From positions 31,088 through 95,087 of the forward strand of contig JAQTYI010000001.1 of assembly GCA_028688325.1 (NCBI GenBank): a stretch of 64,000 nt of DNA. The letters are read 5' to 3'. A program made the position numbers and the translations under genes. The notes below the pieces were generated by a model. It was not told the origin of the DNA and did not search any database. It was given only the letters and a program-made list of their open reading frames with translations. Positions within the stretch are counted from its first letter, which is position 1. The number at the start of each line of letters is the position of its first letter. Shown one piece after another: positions 1-59,876 of the stretch. The stretch is from Candidatus Portnoybacteria bacterium. GTDB taxonomy: Bacteria; Patescibacteriota; Minisyncoccia; Portnoybacterales; GWB1-42-6.

Positions 1-1538
1 ATCGTGGCTGGATCTTTCGGATTGGGATAAGCAGGCCGCAGAAAGAAAATCACGGGCGCCAAATTCTTGGGCAAATCCACGCCTTCGCCGTAATTGGCAA
101 CCGTGCCAACAAGCACACTTCCTTCGCCTTGTTGAAATTTCCTGGCCGCTTCCCTTGGCTTAATGCCATTCCCGTAGCTGATGGCGTCCACGCCTTCCTC
201 GCCGGCCAGCATCAGAAACTTCTCCCGCTCTTTATTTGACACAACCACCACCAAAGAGCGCGAACCGGCATCCTGCAAATCTCGACAGGCCTTTGCTATC
301 TTGCGCAATGACCGGGTTAAATCCTGGCGGCTGCGCGATTTCACGGCCAGATTGGGAGTATCCGAGGGAATCAGTATCTTAGCGTTCTCAACCGGAAAAT
401 CTGATTCAAAAGCATAGAAAGGAAACTTGATCCCCGATTCAAATCCCAATGTCTCCGCGTCACCGATAGTCGCCGAATAAGCCAGAGTCCGAGACGCTAA
501 TATCTTTTTGATAAGCGGAGCCACATAATAAGCCCTGATGACCAAACGATACTGCGTCTTGCTGTTCTCGCCGATCTCTTGCTCATAATAACCGTAGGTA
601 TAATTTAACGGCTTGCGATTGTCCGTTTCCAAGGAATACTCCAGCGACCGCAGATAGCGCGTCAAGCTTCTTGTTATCACTTCCGCGCGCTTCAATGTTT
701 CGTGCTGTTTTAACGCGTCAATCTTGCCATTTTTCATGGCCTGACGAACAGCGCGCATCATCGACCTTGAATCAATGCCGTAAAGATCGGACAGAAGATT
801 GTTTATTTCCGCCGGTTCAAGTAAAGTGGCGGTTCCCGGCTGTCGTTTTTTTACGACCTTCATCATCTTCCGGCGAAAACTGTCCAAAATCTGCGCCTCT
901 TGAATATCGGCATTGTAGAATAGATCCACCGCTTTCTCAAGATGATAATCAGTGATTTCGTAGCTCAAAGAGCCGCGGAATACCCTGGCGATCTGATGCA
1001 CTTCGTCGATTACCAGCCCGGCCGTCTCTCCCCATTCTTCCGAAAAAAGATGAGTGAAAAGATAAAAAGCCATGGTGCAGACCACGATGCCGCCTTGTTT
1101 GGCGTTCCATTTGTCGCCCAAATATGGGCAGGGCTCGGCGCCAGCCACTTCCGTTTCGCCCGTTTCCGCATCAACACGATGAGGACAATCAAGCAAAGAG
1201 CAGGGCGCTGCTTCGGCGGAAATCTCTCCGTTGTAATACAAACACGGATACTCGTTCCGGCCATACATCACTTTGACGTCCGGATGCAGTTTTTTGGCCT
1301 GATCCACAAGGGTCTTGTTGGGCGTGATGTAAAAAAGCGAAGTTTGCCCAGCCGCTTCCAGCGTTTTCAAAAATGTGTAGCCGATAGCGGTTTTTCCGGT
1401 GCCGGTTGGCAATTCCAGCAGCAGCGAACAATCATGTTTTTCAAGCAACATCAACGCTTTTCCCTGATTACCCATAATCTTCGGGTAACGATTCTTCGGC
1501 CAATGCGCCAAAAAATCCAGATGTTCCAGATGTTTCAT
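1..1538 (-). CDS. DinG/XPD (Rad3)-family ATP-dependent DNA helicase with Fe-S domain; 3' end runs off the window
   Basis: Manual reverse translation gives a continuous ORF from the ATG at 1536-1538 to position 1. It has a Walker A-like PTGTGKT, a DEAH-type box VIDEVHQ, a four-Cys cluster (C..C..C..C) typical of XPD/DinG Fe-S helicases, and a C-terminal YGEGVDLP motif. It is missing from the ORF track because no stop lies inside the window. Confidence 0.8.
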   Translation of the reverse strand, partial: MKHLEHLDFLAHWPKNRYPKIMGNQGKALMLLEKHDCSLLLELPTGTGKTAIGYTFLKTLEAAGQTSLFYITPNKTLVDQAKKLHPDVKVMYGRNEYPCLYYNGEISAEAAPCSLLDCPHRVDAETGETEVAGAEPCPYLGDKWNAKQGGIVVCTMAFYLFTHLFSEEWGETAGLVIDEVHQIARVFRGSLSYEITDYHLEKAVDLFYNADIQEAQILDSFRRKMMKVVKKRQPGTATLLEPAEINNLLSDLYGIDSRSMMRAVRQAMKNGKIDALKQHETLKRAEVITRSLTRYLRSLEYSLETDNRKPLNYTYGYYEQEIGENSKTQYRLVIRAYYVAPLIKKILASRTLAYSATIGDAETLGFESGIKFPFYAFESDFPVENAKILIPSDTPNLAVKSRSRQDLTRSLRKIAKACRDLQDAGSRSLVVVVSNKEREKFLMLAGEEGVDAISYGNGIKPREAARKFQQGEGSVLVGTVANYGEGVDLPKNLAPVIFFLRPAYPNPKDPAT

Positions 1539-10505: not shown

Positions 10506-10948
10506 GAAGTCCAAGCAAATCGGGCAATCGCCCTTCGCTACGCGAAGGGAGGAAAGTCCGAACTCTCTCTCCCTGCCACGGCGGGGTTAAAAAAGGTAGC
10601 GGCTAACAGCCGTCCATCGTAAGATGCGAGGTGCGAACAGTGACGATTTTATCCGAAAGGATAAAATCGCCCTCCGAAGCTTTACGCGTAGGAGGGCGCA
10701 ATTTGACCATAAGAAATTGCAAAATTTCCAAAGTCAAAATGAAACGGCAAAATCCTTACCGGGTGCAAGATCAAACTATGAGACCGCAAGCTTGGTTCTC
10801 ATAAGACAAGTAGATCGCCCGAGCCCCGCAGCAATGCGGGGCCCAGACAGATGATTGCCCATTCGCTCGTTGCATCGCCCAGGACTTGTCCTGAGCGAGC
10901 GCAGCGAGTCGAAGGACAAAATTCGGCTTATAGATTTGTTTGGACAAT
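10506..10948 (+). ncRNA. rnpB: RNase P RNA (bacterial type A-like)
   Basis: 5' GAAGUCCAAGC (P1); P3 hairpin cccttcgc-ta-cgcgaaggg; P4 5' strand AGGAAAGUCCGAAC; P4 3' strand ACAAAAUUCGGCUUAUA near the 3' end; the closing strand gatttgtttggac pairs with gtccaagcaaatc. A terminator hairpin follows at 10949-10980. Confidence 0.75.
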
Positions 10949-36720: not shown

Positions 36721-39700
36721 ATGAAGTTTACCCACCTCCATGTCCACTCCCACTATTCCCTGCTCGACGGTCTCGCCAAGATAGACGGGCTTGTCGACCG
36801 CGCGCTGAAATTAGGAATGGATTCGCTGGCTTTAACCGACCACGGCTCGCTTTACGGCGCGGTGGAGTTTTACAAAAAAGCCAAAGCCAAGGGGCTAAAG
36901 CCCATAATCGGTACGGAGCTTTATGTGGCGCCGGAAAAACTGACTGATAAGCGCCCTCGCATAGATGATAAAAATTACCATTTAATCTTGTTGGTTAAAA
37001 ACAAGACCGGATATCAAAATCTGGTTTTTTTGATGACCGAGGCCTGGCTCAAGGGATTTTATTACAAGCCCCGCATCGACAAGGACTTGCTGCGCGGCCG
37101 CGCCGAAGGCCTCATCGCCTCTTCCGCGTGTTTGGCCGGTGAAATTCCTCAGGCCATATTAAAAGGCAATCTCGATAAAGCGAAAGAGTTGGCTTTGGAA
37201 TACCAGGAAATTTTCGGCGCAGGCAATTTTTTTCTGGAATTGCAACACCATGCCAATTTGCCCGAGCAAGCCAAGGTCAACGCCGAACTTATAAAAATAA
37301 GCAAGAAAACCGGCGTGCCGCTGGTCGCGACAAACGATGTTCATTATCTAACTCCCGATCAGGCCCAAGCCCAGGATATATTGATGCTGGTCAACACCAA
37401 CGCGGATATCGACGACCCGGAACGCCTGTCGATGAGAGACAATGATTTTTCTTTGCGCCCACCACAGCAATTGATCGATTATTTCCAAGATGTTCCCGAA
37501 GCCATCTCAAACACACAAAAAATCGTCCAGCAATGCAACTTTGAATTCGAGCTGGGCAAATACCAGCTGCCGCATTTTAAAGTGCCGACCAAACAAACGC
37601 CCGAAGCGTTCTTGAAAGAACTTGCCTACAAAGGCATCAGCCACCGCTATCCAGGACAGACCAGCCAAGAAGTTCTGGAGCGGCTTGAATATGAGCTGGG
37701 AGTCATCAACAAGATGGGCTTCGCTTCGTATTTTTTAATCGTGCAAGATTTTGTCAATTGGGCAAAAAACCAGGGCATAGGTGTCGGCCCCGGCCGCGGT
37801 TCGGCCGCCGGCTCCATTGTCGCCTACCTTTTAAACATCACAGAGATAGAACCCTTAAAATACGACTTGCTGTTTGAAAGATTTTTGAATCCCGAACGCA
37901 TTTCCATGCCGGATATCGATTTGGATTTTGCCGACAATCGCCGGGACGAGGTCATCGCGTATGTGCGCCAAAAATACGGCGATGACCATGTGGCTCAGAT
38001 CATCACCTTCGGAACTATGGCGGCCCGCGCGGCCATCCGCGACACCGGCCGCGCCATGGGCGTGGCGTATCTCCTTTGCGACCAAGTGGCCAAAAGTATT
38101 CCCTTCGGCCTGACGCTGGACAAAGCTCTCACCGACTCCCAGGAATTCAAACAGCTTTATGATTCCGACGAGCAAGTCAAAAAACTTATAGATACCGCCT
38201 TGGTGTTGGAAGGCGTGGCGCGCCACGCTTCCACCCACGCGGCTGGAGTCCTTATTACCAAAGACCCGTTAAATACCATCGTGCCCTTGCAGCGGCCGAC
38301 GCAAGACAGGGAAAACGGCGGCAATGTTTCCCAATACGAAATGCATGCCATTGAAGACCTGGGTCTTTTGAAAATGGACTTTTTGGGGTTGAAAACCCTA
38401 ACCCAGATAGAAAATACTGTTAATATCATCAAAAATACCAAGGGCGAAAAAATAAATGCGGGCGCGCTGGCGTTGGATGATAAAAAAACCTACAAGCTTC
38501 TGCAAGAAGCGAAAACCACGGGCGTGTTCCAGCTGGAATCGGGCGGAATGAAACGGAATCTGAAGGAATTAAAGCCCACGGTTTTTGAAGATATTATCGC
38601 CATGGTGGCATTATACCGGCCCGGCCCGATGGACTTCATTCCGGATTTCATCGCGCGCAAACACGGCCACAAAAAAATCGAATATATCCACCCGGCGCTG
38701 GAAGGCATCATCGGCAACACCTACGGCGTCGTCGTCTATCAAGAGCAAGTCATGGCCATTGCCAGCCGCTTGGCCGGCTTTACCATGCCCGAAGCCGACA
38801 CGCTGCGCAAAGCCATGGGCAAAAAGATAAAAAAACTCATGGACGAGCAGCGCGAAAAACTCATCCAGGGCATGACGCGCAATAATATCACCGGCGGCAT
38901 CGCCGAAAAGATATGGGAATTCATCGAGCCCTTTGCCCAATATGGCTTCAACAAAGCGCACGCCACCTGCTACGCCCTGCTCGGATATCAGACCGCGTAT
39001 CTTAAAGCCCACTACCCGACGGAATTTATGGCCGCGTTGATGAATTCCGAATCCGACGATATCGAGCGCATCGCTTTTTTAGTGGACGAATGCCGACAGA
39101 TGAAGATCGATGTTCTGCCGCCCGACATCAATGAAAGTTTGGGTTCGTTTACCGTGATGAAAGACGGCGCCATCCGTTTCGGGCTGAAGGCCGTGAAAAA
39201 TGTCGGTTCCAATGTGGTGGATGCCATTGTTAAAGAAAGAAAACAAAACGGCGCGTTCAAAACCATCGCCGAAGTCATTGAAAGAGTGAAGGACAAGGAC
39301 TTGAACAAAAAATCTTTGGAAAGCTTAATAAAATGCGGCGCGCTGGACGCCATCGGCGAACGCGGCCAATTTTTGGCGAACCTTGAAGCGTTGTTAAACT
39401 ATGCCCGCGAAGTCCAACGGCCAAAGACCAACGGCCAAGCCAGCTTATTTGGCGGAGCGGAAAATAAAAATCTTCTGCCGCCGCTGAAATTGCAGGAGGC
39501 GGCTCCGGCCGGCAAGAAAGAAAAGCTGGACTGGGAGAAAGAATTGCTGGGGCTTTATGTTTCCGAGCATCCGGCCAGGGAATACGAAAAAGTCATTTTA
39601 CAGCGCGCTTTTATGCCGTCCAAGCTGACGCACGAAATGGTCGGCAAATCCTTGAAAGTCGGCGGCGTTTTGAGCCATGTTAAAAAAATAATCACCAAAG

Positions 39701-39915
39701 CGGGAAAGCCAATGCTATTTGTGGGGTTGGAAGATGAAAAAGCCAAACTGGAAATTCTGGTCTTCCCCAAAATGCTGGAGCGCACTCCGACTTTCTGGCA
39801 GGAAGGCAAAGTCGTGATTGTTTCGGGGCGACTGGACGACAAAGAAGGCAATTTCAAACTCCTTTGCGAAGAAGTGCAGGAGCTGAACGCCAACCACCTC
39901 AAAAACGCGCAGTAA
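36721..39915 (+). CDS. dnaE: DNA polymerase III alpha subunit
   Basis: PHP domain (HLHVHSHYSLLDG), polymerase core (GVGPGRGSAAGS), OB-fold; 1064 aa. Confidence 0.9.
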   Translation: MKFTHLHVHSHYSLLDGLAKIDGLVDRALKLGMDSLALTDHGSLYGAVEFYKKAKAKGLKPIIGTELYVAPEKLTDKRPRIDDKNYHLILLVKNKTGYQNLVFLMTEAWLKGFYYKPRIDKDLLRGRAEGLIASSACLAGEIPQAILKGNLDKAKELALEYQEIFGAGNFFLELQHHANLPEQAKVNAELIKISKKTGVPLVATNDVHYLTPDQAQAQDILMLVNTNADIDDPERLSMRDNDFSLRPPQQLIDYFQDVPEAISNTQKIVQQCNFEFELGKYQLPHFKVPTKQTPEAFLKELAYKGISHRYPGQTSQEVLERLEYELGVINKMGFASYFLIVQDFVNWAKNQGIGVGPGRGSAAGSIVAYLLNITEIEPLKYDLLFERFLNPERISMPDIDLDFADNRRDEVIAYVRQKYGDDHVAQIITFGTMAARAAIRDTGRAMGVAYLLCDQVAKSIPFGLTLDKALTDSQEFKQLYDSDEQVKKLIDTALVLEGVARHASTHAAGVLITKDPLNTIVPLQRPTQDRENGGNVSQYEMHAIEDLGLLKMDFLGLKTLTQIENTVNIIKNTKGEKINAGALALDDKKTYKLLQEAKTTGVFQLESGGMKRNLKELKPTVFEDIIAMVALYRPGPMDFIPDFIARKHGHKKIEYIHPALEGIIGNTYGVVVYQEQVMAIASRLAGFTMPEADTLRKAMGKKIKKLMDEQREKLIQGMTRNNITGGIAEKIWEFIEPFAQYGFNKAHATCYALLGYQTAYLKAHYPTEFMAALMNSESDDIERIAFLVDECRQMKIDVLPPDINESLGSFTVMKDGAIRFGLKAVKNVGSNVVDAIVKERKQNGAFKTIAEVIERVKDKDLNKKSLESLIKCGALDAIGERGQFLANLEALLNYAREVQRPKTNGQASLFGGAENKNLLPPLKLQEAAPAGKKEKLDWEKELLGLYVSEHPAREYEKVILQRAFMPSKLTHEMVGKSLKVGGVLSHVKKIITKAGKPMLFVGLEDEKAKLEILVFPKMLERTPTFWQEGKVVIVSGRLDDKEGNFKLLCEEVQELNANHLKNAQ

Positions 39916-39927
39916 GCAGAATTATTA

Positions 39928-39957
39928 TTGACAGCGTTCGCCTAAAAAGCGTAAAAT
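39928..39957 (+). promoter_or_regulatory. Sigma-70-type promoter (TTGACA, 18-nt spacer, TAAAAT) driving the thrS leader
   Basis: Read from the sequence immediately after the dnaE stop. Confidence 0.5.
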
Positions 39958-39963
39958 GTATTC

Positions 39964-40182
39964 ATAAACGAGCAATAAAGCGGACTCACCAACCCCTCGA
40001 CAGACCCAGGGCAAGCCGTCCAAAGCTGTCAACGCTCACGCGGGATACCGGCGCGCTGGTATTATAAAGAGTCCGGCTTTTATCTTAAAGCCGGAAAATT
40101 GGGTGGAACCGCGAGGTATAAAAATACCCCGTCCCAAATATCTTCTTAATTGAAGATTTTTAGGACGGGGCTTTCTTTTTAA
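39964..40182 (+). ncRNA. Putative T-box leader (Thr specifier ACC) upstream of thrS
   Basis: AAAATTGGGTGGAACCGCGAGG at 40095-40116 matches the T-box consensus AAUUAGGGUGGNACCGCG. A candidate specifier ACC-A lies in gactcACCAacc. An intrinsic terminator follows at 40127-40180 (ccccgtcc...ggacgggg plus a T-run). Confidence 0.5.
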
Positions 40183-40360
40183 TTCTACTGCGCACGGTCG
40201 GGATAAAAGAAATCCCATGTTTTCCGATCCATGGGCTCCAGATCGACGCAACCGCAGCTTCGGCAGTCCACGATCATCCTTACGACATTTAATTCTTTAC
40301 CGTCCGGACTTGCCTGCGGCCATTCCTGAAACATCGCTGAACATTGCCCTTTGTCAGCGA

Positions 40361-40468
40361 CTAATGTACCGCACACTGCGGACAGCACCAAACAACATCT
40401 TCCGGCAATTCCACTGAGCCGCCGCAAGCCAAATAGCCCAAACCTATCCTGGTTTTTACACCGCTCAT
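40361..40468 (-). CDS. Small Cys-rich ORF (35 aa, CxxC) with a strong Shine-Dalgarno site; may be a frameshifted, longer zinc-ribbon/rubredoxin-like gene
   Basis: aaaggaggagaat-ATG; MSGVKTRIGLGYLACGGSVELPEDVVWCCPQCAVH. The overlapping 80-aa track ORF (40185-40427) in another frame carries CRSCGC. Confidence 0.3.
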   Translation of the reverse strand: MSGVKTRIGLGYLACGGSVELPEDVVWCCPQCAVH

Positions 40469-40523
40469 ATTCTCCTCCTTTAAGAACTGTATTTATACCA
40501 CTTATTAACTTTAATAAAAAACT

Positions 40524-42278
40524 ATGTCAACTAAAAACGAAAGTCAATTGGAAATCCTCCGCCATTCTGCGGCTCATGTTCTCGCCGCCGCGGTTTTAGA
40601 GATGTTCCCCGAAGCCAAATTTGCCATCGGGCCAAATATTGAAGACGGGTTTTATTATGATTTCGATCTGCCCCGCACGCTAATACCGGAAGACCTGGCT
40701 TTGCTGGAAGAAAAAATGTGCGCGATAATCGGGCAGGATCTGCCTTTTGAAAAAAGCGAAGCGGATGCAAAAGAAGCTATAAAGCTGTTCAAAAAAGCCG
40801 GCCAGCCGTATAAGGTTGAACTGATAGAAGACCTGGCCAAAAATGAAGGCGCAGAGAATGTCTCGCTTTATAAATCCGGCCCATTCGTGGACCTGTGCCG
40901 CGGCCCGCATATTGAATCGGCCGGTAAGATAAAACCGGACGCTTTCAAATTGCTCAAAATTTCCGGCGCTTATTGGCGCGGCAGCGAAAAAAATAAGATG
41001 CTCCAGCGCATCTACGGCACGGCCTGGGAATCAAAAAAGGACTTGGCCGCGTATTTGAACCGCCTGGAAGAAGCGGCCAAACGCGACCACCGAAAAATTG
41101 GCAAAGACCAGGACTTATTTTCTTTCCATGATGTGGCCCCGGGCATGCCGTTTTTTCATCCCAAGGGAACCGTCATTTATAATCTGCTAAAAAACTTCTG
41201 GGTTGAAGCGCAAAAAGAATTTGGTTACGATAATATCCTCTGCCCCTCAATGCTGGATGTGGCCATCTGGAAAAAATCCGGCCACTGGGACCACTATAAA
41301 GACGATATGTATTTCATCAAAGCCGGAGAAGACGAGAAAGAATACGCCTTGCGGCCCATGGATTGCCCGGGCGCCATTTTGATATATAACAATTCTTTGC
41401 ATTCTTATCGCGAACTCCCCTTGCGCTATGCCGAACCGGGACTCATTACCCGTAAAGAAAAGTCCGGCCAACTAAACGGCCTCTTGCGCGTGCAGCAATT
41501 TGTGCAGGATGACGCGCATATCTTTTTAACTGAGGGACAGATAGAACAAGAAGTGAAAAATGTCATCAATTTAGTAGATAAAATATATAAGCCGTTCGGT
41601 ATCAAGTATAAAGCGTATCTTTCTACCAGACCCGATGATTATATGGGCGACATCAAATCATGGGAAAAAGCCGAAAACGCGTTAAAAAATATTTTGGATG
41701 AAGTTTACGGACAAGATAATTACGGCCTAAAAGAAAAAGACGGCGCATTTTATGGGCCCAAAATCGACTACCAGCTGGAAGACGCCATTGGCCGCACCTG
41801 GCAGTGCGCCACCATCCAGCTGGACTTCCAAATGCCGGAAAAATTCGGCTGCCGCTATATTGATAATGAAGGCAAAGAGCAACGACCCGTAATGATACAT
41901 CGCACTATTATGGGCGCATTTGAGCGCTTTATGGGCATCCTGATAGAGCATTATGCCGGCGCCTGGCCCGCGTGGCTGGCGCCTGAACAGGCCTGGCTCT
42001 TGCCCATCGGCGAAAAGCATACCGACTATGCCAACTCGGTCGCGCAAAAACTCCGCGCCGCCGGCATTCGCATTGCCGTCAAAAATGAAAGCGACACTAT
42101 CGGCAAAAAGATCCGCGCAGGCGAACAACAAAAGGTATCGTATCTTCTGGTTATGGGCGATAAAGAAATCGCCGCCGATTCCGTCGCCGTGCGCGAACGA
42201 GGCAAGGGAGACCTGGGGGCAATGAAGGTTGAAGATTTTGTTGAAAAAATAAAAGAAGAGATCGACAATAAATCATAG
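40524..42278 (+). CDS. thrS: Threonyl-tRNA synthetase (lacks the N-terminal TGS domain)
   Basis: Editing-domain HSAAH, class II aaRS motifs, C-terminal anticodon-binding domain; 584 aa. Confidence 0.9.
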   Translation: MSTKNESQLEILRHSAAHVLAAAVLEMFPEAKFAIGPNIEDGFYYDFDLPRTLIPEDLALLEEKMCAIIGQDLPFEKSEADAKEAIKLFKKAGQPYKVELIEDLAKNEGAENVSLYKSGPFVDLCRGPHIESAGKIKPDAFKLLKISGAYWRGSEKNKMLQRIYGTAWESKKDLAAYLNRLEEAAKRDHRKIGKDQDLFSFHDVAPGMPFFHPKGTVIYNLLKNFWVEAQKEFGYDNILCPSMLDVAIWKKSGHWDHYKDDMYFIKAGEDEKEYALRPMDCPGAILIYNNSLHSYRELPLRYAEPGLITRKEKSGQLNGLLRVQQFVQDDAHIFLTEGQIEQEVKNVINLVDKIYKPFGIKYKAYLSTRPDDYMGDIKSWEKAENALKNILDEVYGQDNYGLKEKDGAFYGPKIDYQLEDAIGRTWQCATIQLDFQMPEKFGCRYIDNEGKEQRPVMIHRTIMGAFERFMGILIEHYAGAWPAWLAPEQAWLLPIGEKHTDYANSVAQKLRAAGIRIAVKNESDTIGKKIRAGEQQKVSYLLVMGDKEIAADSVAVRERGKGDLGAMKVEDFVEKIKEEIDNKS

Positions 42279-59266: not shown

Positions 59267-59436
59267 TTTCCGCGTTTATTTTATACTTTAATTTTAGTAT
59301 ATTTTCAATCAAAAAACAAGCACCGAATGTGGATAAAACACGCAGCAAACACACAGGGTAAAATAACCTAAAAAACCGCCCAAACAGGCGGTTTTCTGCG
59401 GCGGGGCTTACACCCCTTCGCTCACTTTGTTCGCTG

Positions 59437-59512
59437 CGGGCCGTACGGGATTCGAACCCGTGGTCTTCTCCGTGACAGGGAGACGCGTTAAGCCTGGCTA
59501 CGCTAACGGCCC
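59437..59512 (-). tRNA. tRNA-Asp (GTC)
   Basis: Manual fold: acceptor GGGCCGT/ACGGCCC, D arm GCGTAGCCAGGC, anticodon loop CTGTCAC, T arm GGTTCGAATCC. CCA is not encoded. Confidence 0.85.
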
Positions 59513-59537
59513 ATAAACATTTTCACGATAAAACTCG

Positions 59538-59611
59538 TAGCTGCGAGTGGACTCGAACCACTGACCTGGCGCTTATGAAGCGCCCGCTCTAACCGACTGA
59601 GCTACGCAGCC
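59538..59611 (-). tRNA. Elongator-type tRNA-Met (CAT), or Ile2 if the C34 is lysidinylated
   Basis: Acceptor GGCTGCG/CGCAGCT with G1·U72, D arm GCTCAGTCGGTTAGAGC, anticodon loop TTCATAA, T arm AGTGGTTCGAGTCCACT, pyrimidine11:purine24. Confidence 0.85.
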
Positions 59612-59805
59612 CAACTACGCTCCGATTTTCATCGGAGCTTCGATGGGCAAGTGATGTAATAAATAAACTTCTTGCCCTTCCGAAGCTCAAATGCAATTTG
59701 GGCGAAGGAGGGAGCTACGCAGCCATGCACCCTCTCTATAAAAAATAATAACGCCTGAACTAAATTCTGTCACCATTTAATTTACGGCGCTAATATTTTA
59801 ATATG

Positions 59806-59876
59806 TTGCGGGGCCCGGAATTGCACCGGGGTCTGGGGCTTATGAGACCCCCGAGATACTTCTTCTCTACCCCGCG
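59806..59876 (-). tRNA. Initiator-like tRNA-Met (CAT) with atypical D and T loops
   Basis: C1xA72 mismatch, A11:U24, and an acceptor/anticodon arm very similar to E. coli tRNA-fMet (CGCGGGG..CTCATAA..CCCCGCAA). The D loop AGAAGTA lacks G18G19 and the T loop is TGCAATT (G55). Confidence 0.6.

Follow-up and report, generated by a model that had tools for sequence, protein, structure and literature searches.

A candidate tRNA-Thr-sensing T-box with ultrashort Stem I preceding thrS of a patescibacterium

RESULTS AND DISCUSSION

Organization of the dnaE–thrS locus

The locus lies in a stretch of DNA of 64,000 nt, referred to herein as the window, and comprises dnaE, a leader of ~217 nt, and thrS, with a small cysteine-rich gene on the opposite strand between the leader and thrS (Table 1). 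The encoded ThrS is 100% identical to a Candidatus Portnoybacteria ThrS, which places the genome in the CPR (Patescibacteria). Related ThrS loci, designated here by L numbers, were collected from genomes and metagenomes and by looking up exact proteins, and the order dnaE–leader–thrS was also found in L161, L165, and L166. Thirteen bases separate the end of dnaE (39915) from a sigma-70-type promoter, and transcription would start near 39964. A promoter of the form TTGAC(A)-16..18-TAnAAT occupies the equivalent place in every related leader that was read. An earlier note on this DNA had described a consensus promoter right after dnaE, a T-box leader of ~220 nt, an intrinsic terminator following the T-box, and thrS ~340 nt downstream, all of which were confirmed, the thrS start being located 343 nt after the U-tract of the terminator.

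In most relatives, the leader adjoins thrS directly (L002, L072, L083, L084, L131, L161, L163, L166, and L168). The 343-nt gap in the window, with its convergent gene and strong Shine-Dalgarno (SD) sequence, was counted against a function of the leader as an attenuator of thrS, and so were two minor features: a weak promoter candidate proximal to thrS (TTAAGA-17-TATTAA, read by eye) and a weak terminator-like site at 40200-40216.

Table 1. Features of the dnaE–thrS locus (positions of the window)
Feature	Position	Strand	Remarks
dnaE (DNA polymerase III alpha)	36721..39915	+	NCBIfam NF005298 equivalog, 1447.9 bits; upstream neighbour
Sigma-70-type promoter	39928..39957	+	TTGACA 39928-33, 18-nt spacer, TAAAAT 39952-57; 11/12 match
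Decoding module	39970..40037	+	Long-range closing helix GAGC 39970-73 / GCUC 40034-37; three-way junction with specifier hairpin and Stem II
Ultrashort Stem I specifier hairpin	39980..39996	+	GCGG / 9-nt apical loop ACUCACCAA / CCCC; from alignment to family model R1
Stem II-like hairpin	39999..40030	+	GACAG ... CUGUC, inner GGGC/GUCC helix; RNAfold centroid
Stem IIA/B-type H pseudoknot	40039..40062	+	IIA CGCG 40039-42 / CGCG 40052-55; IIB AUACC 40045-49 / GGUAU 40058-62
Purine string and Stem III	40063..40098	+	AAGAG 40067-71; Stem III UCCGGCUUU 40072-80 / AAAGCCGGA 40087-95; AAA 40096-98
Antiterminator/discriminator	40099..40137	+	A1 UUGGG 40099-103 / CCCAA 40133-37; bulge UGGAACC 40104-10; A2 GCGAGGUAU 40111-19 / AUACCCCGU 40124-32
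Intrinsic terminator	40127..40180	+	17-bp interrupted stem CCCCGUCC...GGACGGGG 40127-40170; U-tract CUUUCUUUUU 40171-80
Small Cys-rich (CxxC...CxxC) gene	40185..40468	−	Convergent with the leader, antisense to any read-through; strong SD AAAGGAGGAG; frameshifted
thrS	40524..42278	+	Pfam tRNA_SAD, tRNA-synt_2b, HGTP_anticodon; 584 aa, without N-terminal TGS domain; putative regulated gene

Discriminator, antiterminator, and terminator

The T-box core, AAAAUUGGGUGGAACCGCGAGG, was located at 40096-40117. The A2 helix opens with the wobble G40111-U40132, and among the 24 thrS leaders compared in this work the first A2 pair is G-U in 12 and A-U in five. Such a G-U wobble at the opening of A2 is the steric sensor of the aminoacyl group. 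A published list of the features that define a T-box discriminator includes this terminal wobble of A2 and the purine string 5′-RRRxG-Stem III-AA-3′ (PMC7583486), and each of the features listed there is present in the window. Across the 24 leaders, Stem III covaries and is 97% paired, A1 and A2 are 95% and 93% paired, and changes on both sides occur at all 11 pairs of A1 and A2.

Positions 40127-40137 are common to the 5′ strand of the terminator and the 3′ strands of A2 and A1, so that the two structures are mutually exclusive. The folding energy of the antiterminator is −12.2 kcal/mol and that of the terminator −26.0 kcal/mol (z = −7.4; 0 of 200 shuffles folded as well). When the region from Stem III through the U-tract was folded together, the terminator outcompeted the weak antiterminator, as would be expected from the energetics of a switch that needs the tRNA to stay on. 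On the minus strand, the same hairpin is followed by UAUUUUUAU, giving U-rich tails on both strands, and the T-box terminator probably also ends the antisense gene.

The bulge carries UGGA in 24 of the 24 leaders, which predicts U73 in tRNA-Thr. No tRNA-Thr gene was found in the window, where only Asp, Met, and Met tRNAs are present, or in the 23 CPR loci scanned. Most of the Firmicutes thrS leaders in the loci fetched by us also carry UGGA, and four T-boxes elsewhere in those loci carry UGGU.

Decoding half of the leader

The helix closing the decoding module was predicted both by RNAfold, from the window alone, and by RNAalifold, from five natural sequences in which its pairs vary (GC/GU/AU). 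The specifier within it is the triplet ACC (39988-39990), followed by the conserved purine A39991. The alternative triplet CCA, contained in the conserved ACCA, was less favoured because it has no conserved purine after it. An ACC-A specifier in an early stem had been suggested in the earlier note; the motif is indeed present at 39988-39991, but in the loop of a hairpin and not in a stem.

The specifier helix is weak in the window, with four positions comprising three G-C pairs and one C-C mismatch, which we counted against attenuation, and it was absent from the RNAfold prediction on the window's single sequence. Its loop is identical to that of L082, and its 3′ strand reads CCCC in the window and CCGC in L082 and L162. 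Among the relatives, the pairs of this helix covary (GC/AU/GU/UA and CG/UA/GC). The K-turn-like GA...GA of the relatives is degenerate in the window (AAUAAA / UCGA), with AA in place of GA, likewise in L161; this AA variant was also counted against a function as attenuator.

Four other pairings were tried and rejected. A 2-bp GG/CC pairing given by RNAalifold, which would bury the CC of ACC, was regarded as an alignment artefact, the 4-bp helix being supported by the alignments of 18 and 24 sequences. The pairing GGACUC/GAGUCC (39982-87/40069-74), from the single-sequence fold, is not conserved in L161. A long-range pairing GGAC/GUCC (39982-85/40018-21) around the specifier, an idea prompted by one apparent A-U to U-A swap in L083, was dropped, since L161-L164 show a hairpin and a separate Stem II. 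Finally, GACAA/UUGUU as Stem II of L083 was replaced by UUUCG/CGAAA, which is compatible with the closing helix.

The nearest relatives of the window (L161, L163, L164, and L083) also have a hairpin at the position of Stem II; inserted after the specifier hairpin and before the closing helix is completed by its 3′ strand, it gives rise to the three-way junction. The internal loops of the window's Stem II-like hairpin are ACCCA and AAAG, and no S-turn was recognised in this hairpin (39999-40030). Stem II is missing altogether in the relatives L001, L082, L002, L131, L072, and L162. The pseudoknot that follows is 98.8% paired in a hand alignment of 11 leaders (57.7 ± 4.2 when shuffled), a figure that leans towards the model, its registers having been chosen by hand. 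These pairs were counted with a script of our own, since MAFFT shifted the columns of the short condensed strings. The partner strands of the pseudoknot change together (GCC/GGC, CGCU/AGCG, GCGU/ACGC, CGUC/GACG, and UGU/ACA).

A long Stem I with a K-turn, an internal specifier loop/S-turn, and a distal interdigitated T-loop platform was not encountered in the leader, in which the 135 nt from the transcription start to the T-box are fully taken up by the 17-nt hairpin, Stem II, the pseudoknot, and Stem III. Of the features that the earlier note had named for a check by folding, the mutually exclusive antiterminator and terminator were borne out; in place of the internal specifier loop of a long Stem I, there is a 4-bp hairpin with the ACC in its apical loop of 9 nt.

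Conservation and covariation among related leaders

Leaders with a comparable core precede many thrS genes of Patescibacteria, including Moraniibacteria-like and Parcubacteria loci and one Saccharibacteria locus. In all of them the decoding part is tiny, consisting of a helix of 3-6 bp and a terminal loop of 6-11 nt that ends in ACC-A-N, as in GCGG-ACUCACCAA-CCGC (L082), CUAUGG-UUACCAG-CCAUAG (L004), and GCAG-CAACCA-CUGC (L029). A good K-turn signature underlies many of these hairpins: a bulge of 3 nt with GA...GA and, as the closing helix, GAAGC/GCUUC. The specifier triplet is ACC in 23 of the 24 thrS leaders and ACU, a synonymous Thr codon, in the remaining one (L132), and the base after it is A in 23 and G in one; apart from that synonymous ACU, ACC-A is the only invariant motif of the loop. 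In each of the 24 leaders, whether read or modelled, a near-consensus promoter of its own is present and the alternative helix is followed by a U-tract.

In the model-fitted alignment of the 24 leaders, 91.8% of the cells are paired (69.5 ± 1.3 when shuffled), and compensatory changes, affecting both sides of a pair, occur at 17 of the 18 modelled pairs. A condensed hand alignment of 18 leaders, which leans towards the model because its segments were chosen by hand, gave 93.2% paired cells (69.0 ± 1.4 when shuffled) and changes on both sides at 21 of 24 pairs; sliding the partner strands lowered pairing to 30%-49%. Additionally, when five natural sequences were aligned by MAFFT without guidance and folded with RNAalifold, the closing helix, Stem II, Stem III, A1/A2, and the IIB hairpin were recovered independently.

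Detection by covariance models

An Rfam search of the 64-kb window at gathering thresholds listed no T-box and only RNase P RNA and three tRNAs. In a local E-value scan, RF00230 was the top Rfam match, with 35.9 bits and an E-value of 2.7e-6 (gathering score 93). The alignment is nearly perfect over model positions 160-219, corresponding to Stem III and the antiterminator, and the low score is explained by Stem I, where only 12 nt stand in for 84 positions of the model. Firmicutes thrS leaders, used as controls in the same search set-up, scored 93-135 bits on RF00230, and the related CPR leaders either scored 33-44 bits or were unlisted at E ≤ 1, with none at the cut-off. The sub-gathering RF00230 score was counted against a function as attenuator. 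The RF00230 search named in the earlier note gave the T-box as the top local match, but at 35.9 bits, below 93, it was ambiguous as a refutation test and was replaced by a model of the family itself.

This covariance model, R1, was built from 16 related CPR thrS leaders with the window left out. It matched the window at 39967-40140 over model positions 1-143 of 143, with 76.1 bits and an E-value of 1.5e-19, and its next-best match in the 64-kb window scored 7.9 bits. Over 168 loci, scores were 69-108 bits for the training leaders and 54-88 bits for leaders of this kind that the model had not seen (L017, L031, L118, and L132); weaker scores were obtained for L136 (37 bits) and for L092 and L097 (about 22 bits each), and canonical Firmicutes T-boxes scored 22-38 bits. 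The T-box finding was retained despite the gathering miss because both the local E-value scan and the family model were significant. A chance resemblance to the T-box consensus beside an ordinary terminator might be invoked for a candidate below the RF00230 cut-off, the more so as chance alone would produce the 9-mer RGTGGNACC about once in a window. This explanation, to which we assign practically no probability, is already refuted by the two E-values and by the homologous leaders with compensatory changes at 23 other loci.

Proposed mechanism and state of the leader

T-boxes are the textbook example of RNA sensing both which tRNA is present and whether it is charged. The elements of such an RNA, their mutual exclusivity, their conservation, and their covariation are shown by the sequences of this leader and its relatives. 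From this comparative evidence, we consider it very probable that the leader is a tRNA-Thr-sensing T-box that controls thrS by transcription attenuation and has a reduced decoding module with an ultrashort Stem I. The earlier proposal that thrS of a CPR genome is preceded by a Thr T-box equipped with a promoter and a terminator of its own is supported by the canonical discriminator and by the presence of ACC in 23 of 24 leaders.

In the mechanism that we propose, RNA polymerase would start near 39964 and the nascent leader would fold into a three-way junction with the 4-bp hairpin, whose apical loop would show the Thr codon ACC and the following A; 3′ of this hairpin would come, in order, the Stem II-like hairpin, the IIA/B pseudoknot, Stem III, and the discriminator. 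The anticodon of tRNA-Thr(GGU) would pair with ACC at 39988-90. If the tRNA is uncharged, its 3′ NCCA would pair with UGGA (40104-07) of the 7-nt bulge and stabilise the weak A1/A2 antiterminator; with the antiterminator held, the CCCCGUCC strand would be barred from the terminator, and the polymerase would pass 40180 and continue for 343 nt to thrS along a stretch antisense to the small Cys-rich gene. A charged tRNA would be unable to dock, in which case the −26 kcal/mol terminator would form and transcription would stop at the U-tract around 40180. Binding of the tRNA, sensing of its charging state, and read-through into thrS are deduced from the anatomy of the leader and from the established T-box mechanism.

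Some properties of the leader could also be those of a decaying relic, in which the T-box would yield only a short terminated RNA and thrS would be driven by a separate promoter located beyond the antisense gene. The C-C mismatch of the specifier helix, where L082 and L162 have CCGC, the G-to-A change in the K-turn, and the 343-nt gap with a convergent gene inside it would fit such a state, as would the mosaic nature of the locus: the promoter stretch is 93% identical to that of L161 (ThrS 93% identical), and the discriminator and terminator (40097-40182) are 96.5% identical to those of L162 (ThrS 87%) and 62.5% to those of L161. However, the promoter matches at 11 of 12 positions, the discriminator, the terminator, and all conserved positions are intact, and the family model matches over its full length with 76 bits. 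L161, the closest relative, has the AA variant too, yet it retains the whole leader, and the preservation of the layout in several lineages speaks for selection. We therefore regard decay as quite unlikely.

Relation to known T-box systems

The leader, interpreted as a tRNA-Thr-responsive attenuator, resembles the canonical transcriptional T-box (RF00230; for example, Bacillus subtilis thrS/thrZ and Firmicutes thrS), which likewise lies upstream of thrS. Common to both are the UGGNACC bulge, A1/A2, the G-U wobble, the purine string, Stem III, the IIA/B-type pseudoknot, and a terminator with U-tract that excludes the antiterminator, and the UGGA bulge is that of the fetched Firmicutes thrS leaders. 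Unlike the canonical form, the window leader is without a long Stem I, an internal specifier loop/S-turn, an AG bulge, and a distal loop (IDTM), so that the tRNA elbow would not be contacted. It belongs to a CPR bacterium and carries its specifier 5′ of Stem II, in an apical loop. The T-box control of thrS that the earlier note called classical in Firmicutes is matched in that a T-box precedes thrS, but not in the decoding part, where the specifier is apical and 12 nt stand for 84 Stem I model positions. The glyQS-type minimal T-boxes are likewise reduced and likewise act on transcription; they keep the long Stem I and the elbow platform and have dropped Stem II and the pseudoknot, which is the opposite of what is seen in the window.

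T-boxes with an ultrashort (US) Stem I that act on the translation of ileS were reportedly described by Sherwood, Grundy and Henkin in 2015, and structures are said to exist for the Mycobacterium tuberculosis and M. smegmatis ileS leaders. The window leader has in common with these actinobacterial T-boxes a short Stem I, a terminal loop that holds the specifier with a purine after it, the lack of an elbow platform, and the retention of the Stem II / IIA-B region and of the canonical discriminator. In contrast, US members are associated with ileS and an Ile specifier, whereas the window has ACC (Thr), thrS, and a patescibacterial host, and its Stem II lies within the helix that closes Stem I. 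In the US class, Stem II docks on the specifier–anticodon duplex by means of an S-turn, a motif that was not recognisable in the window's Stem II-like hairpin. The two also differ in output, the US ileS class being a translational SD sequestrator and the window leader having an intrinsic terminator, with hairpin and U-tract, 343 nt before the start codon. The shared ultrashort Stem I with its apical-loop specifier might suggest that the window leader, too, is a translational class II T-box of the sequestrator type. This is contradicted by the anatomy, as CUUUCUUUUU comes immediately after the alternative helix, which is a hairpin rich in G+C, and U-tracts are present in all the relatives too; moreover, SD sequestration is excluded by the distance of the thrS start codon from the switch, and we consider a translational mode of action extremely improbable.

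According to a 2023 preprint, all members of the US class regulate ileS and respond to tRNA-Ile, and reviews describe the ultrashort Stem I as belonging to slow, reversible, translational ileS switches of Actinobacteria. A 2020 review states that transcriptional T-boxes generally require a long Stem I with an elbow-binding platform, which it ties to fast tRNA capture. Given that review, the lack of an elbow platform in the window leader was counted against attenuation. As descriptions of the US design have so far been confined to translational actinobacterial ileS T-boxes, an ultrashort Stem I joined to an intrinsic terminator, with a Thr codon and in a CPR bacterium, as read from the sequences, would be a new combination. 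Our literature search found no paper linking T-boxes with Patescibacteria or CPR, and an earlier description may exist elsewhere.

A broader view, on which we are evenly divided, is that Patescibacteria carry an undescribed class of T-boxes, undetected by the Rfam model, that attenuate transcription and read tRNA-Thr by an ultrashort Stem I with an apical-loop specifier and without an elbow platform; some members would be without Stem II, and in others the terminator would be a long-range helix that competes with Stem III and not with the T-box strand. If so, co-transcriptional sensing of a tRNA would be possible without a long Stem I, and an ultrashort-plus-terminator family, with 24 leaders and strong covariation, would make the kinetic argument for a long Stem I directly testable. 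T-boxes would then be undercounted by Rfam-based surveys, and very compact tRNA-responsive modules (about 125-175 nt) would be on offer for engineering. To our knowledge, almost no gene regulation is known in ultrasmall, host-dependent bacteria, to which T-box regulation would be extended.

The antisense Cys-rich gene

The layout in which a leader, a shared bidirectional terminator, an antisense CxxC...CxxC ORF, and thrS follow one another recurs in the window, L162, L001, L081, L082, and L167, at loci whose ThrS proteins are 68%-87% identical to that of the window. Four Cys are invariant in the small ORFs at the equivalent position in L001, L081, L082, and L167. Pfam and NCBIfam searches with the small antisense proteins gave no family and only sub-threshold zinc-ribbon noise. 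If the class proposed above is real, the read-through RNA in the window's lineage would be antisense to a conserved small zinc-ribbon-like gene, and one switch would have two outputs.

This recurrent layout, together with the U-rich tails that follow the hairpin on both strands, raises the question of whether read-through mainly or additionally controls the convergent gene, by antisense RNA or polymerase collision, in which case threonine starvation would turn that gene off and thrS on. Most related leaders, however, have no such ORF and adjoin thrS directly, the ORF is frameshifted in the window, and the small proteins have neither an assigned family nor a link to threonine; control of the Cys-rich gene appears unlikely to us, and attenuation of thrS remains the preferred interpretation of the leader.

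The earlier note was right that a Cys-rich ORF lies antisense in the gap, opposite any read-through, but the ORF is not intact. Relative to L162, a 2-nt GT insertion breaks it into two frames, one of 35 aa (40468..40361) and one of 80 aa (40427..40185); the ORF of L162 is intact and encodes 95 aa with CxxC...CxxC. The window reads CAGTGTGCGG against CAGTGCGG in L162. The GT insertion reflects either a recent pseudogene or an assembly error.

Variants of the leader among relatives

Among the fetched loci encoding ThrS relatives (numbers with the prefix L), the leader of L132 (2450–2586, on a contig of 848 kb) belongs to the same family as the window leader, and its specifier loop, CAUCACUAA, carries ACU-A, with a synonymous threonine codon, in place of ACC-A; a simple terminator lies 3' of it. 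A non-classical terminator was found in L083 (2884–2984), L161 (2323–2424), L163, L164, L166, L002, L131, and L072, and also in L017 and L031. In it, a segment located 3' of the antiterminator (AGUGAUUUUUGGGCG) forms a helix of some 15 bp with the loop and 5' strand of Stem III (e.g., CGCCCAGAAAUCACU); a U-tract follows the helix. In the RNAalifold prediction, several pairs of this helix show compensatory changes. Since the helix joins Stem III to a strand beyond the antiterminator, the terminator modeled here would be a rival of Stem III, enclosing the antiterminator helices A1/A2 and leaving them intact.

Reduced leaders, of about 125–150 nt, were observed in L001, L082, L002, L131, L072, and L162. 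Stem II and the elbow platform are both apparently absent from them, and only the K-turn, specifier hairpin, IIA/B pseudoknot, Stem III, and discriminator are kept.

Mosaic composition of the window leader and the spacer before thrS

Comparison of window positions 39920–40523 with L161 and L162 revealed a mosaic leader, in which the promoter and decoding module are L161-like and the discriminator and terminator, together with the antisense gene, are L162-like (96.5% and 83.5% identity). The junction of an L161-like 5' part to an L162-like 3' part suggests recombination between T-box modules.

The antisense gene is intact in L162, where it encodes 95 aa, and relative to this homologue the window frame is broken by a GT insertion at about position 40370. 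Small CxxC...CxxC ORFs, sharing four invariant cysteines, occupy the equivalent position in L001, L081, L082, and L167; no known family was found for them. The weak hairpin situated within the window ORF is no more than would be expected by chance. Between the leader terminator and thrS, long inverted repeats that look like small repeated elements were also seen in L161 (2425–2490) and L166 (1932–1990), e.g., TTGTCATTCTGAGGGCGCAGCCCGAAGAATC...GCTCAGGATGACA.

Features of the window outside the leader
Feature	Position	Strand	Remarks
Small Cys-rich gene	40185–40468	-	Strong SD; frameshifted
Weak terminator-like hairpin, GGGAUAAAAGAAAUCCC + AUGUUUUCC	40200–40216	+	Immediately 3' of the main terminator, within the antisense ORF
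Bacterial RNase P RNA, class A	10512–10946	+	109 bits, barely over the gathering score of 100; departs from the model by large insertions and deletions
tRNA cluster	59436–59876	-	tRNA-Asp(GUC), tRNA-Met(CAU), second tRNA-Met(CAU)

Ancestry of ThrS and host range of the leader

The window ThrS (40524–42278) lacks the N-terminal TGS domain. Because its nearest relatives outside the CPR are Firmicutes enzymes (50%–54% identity) whose genes bear canonical T-boxes, the window thrS and its leader may have a history in common with Firmicutes thrS. CPR-like ThrS (54%–55% identity) was also found in MAGs labeled "uncultured Bdellovibrionales" (L017 and L031, as well as L008 and L036), and the same short-stem leader is present in L017 (88 bits) and L031 (69 bits), as scored with R1, a covariance model built from 16 relatives without the window. 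Either these bins are mislabeled, or the short-stem variant extends beyond the CPR.

Other structured RNAs

No tRNA-Thr was found within the 64-kb window; in its tRNA cluster, the second tRNA-Met(CAU) has the lower score (52 bits). An RNase P RNA adjoins the thrS locus in L001 too (129 bits). On the Patescibacteria contig of L072, a SAM riboswitch match at 339–453 scored 36 bits, below the cut-off of 44.4.
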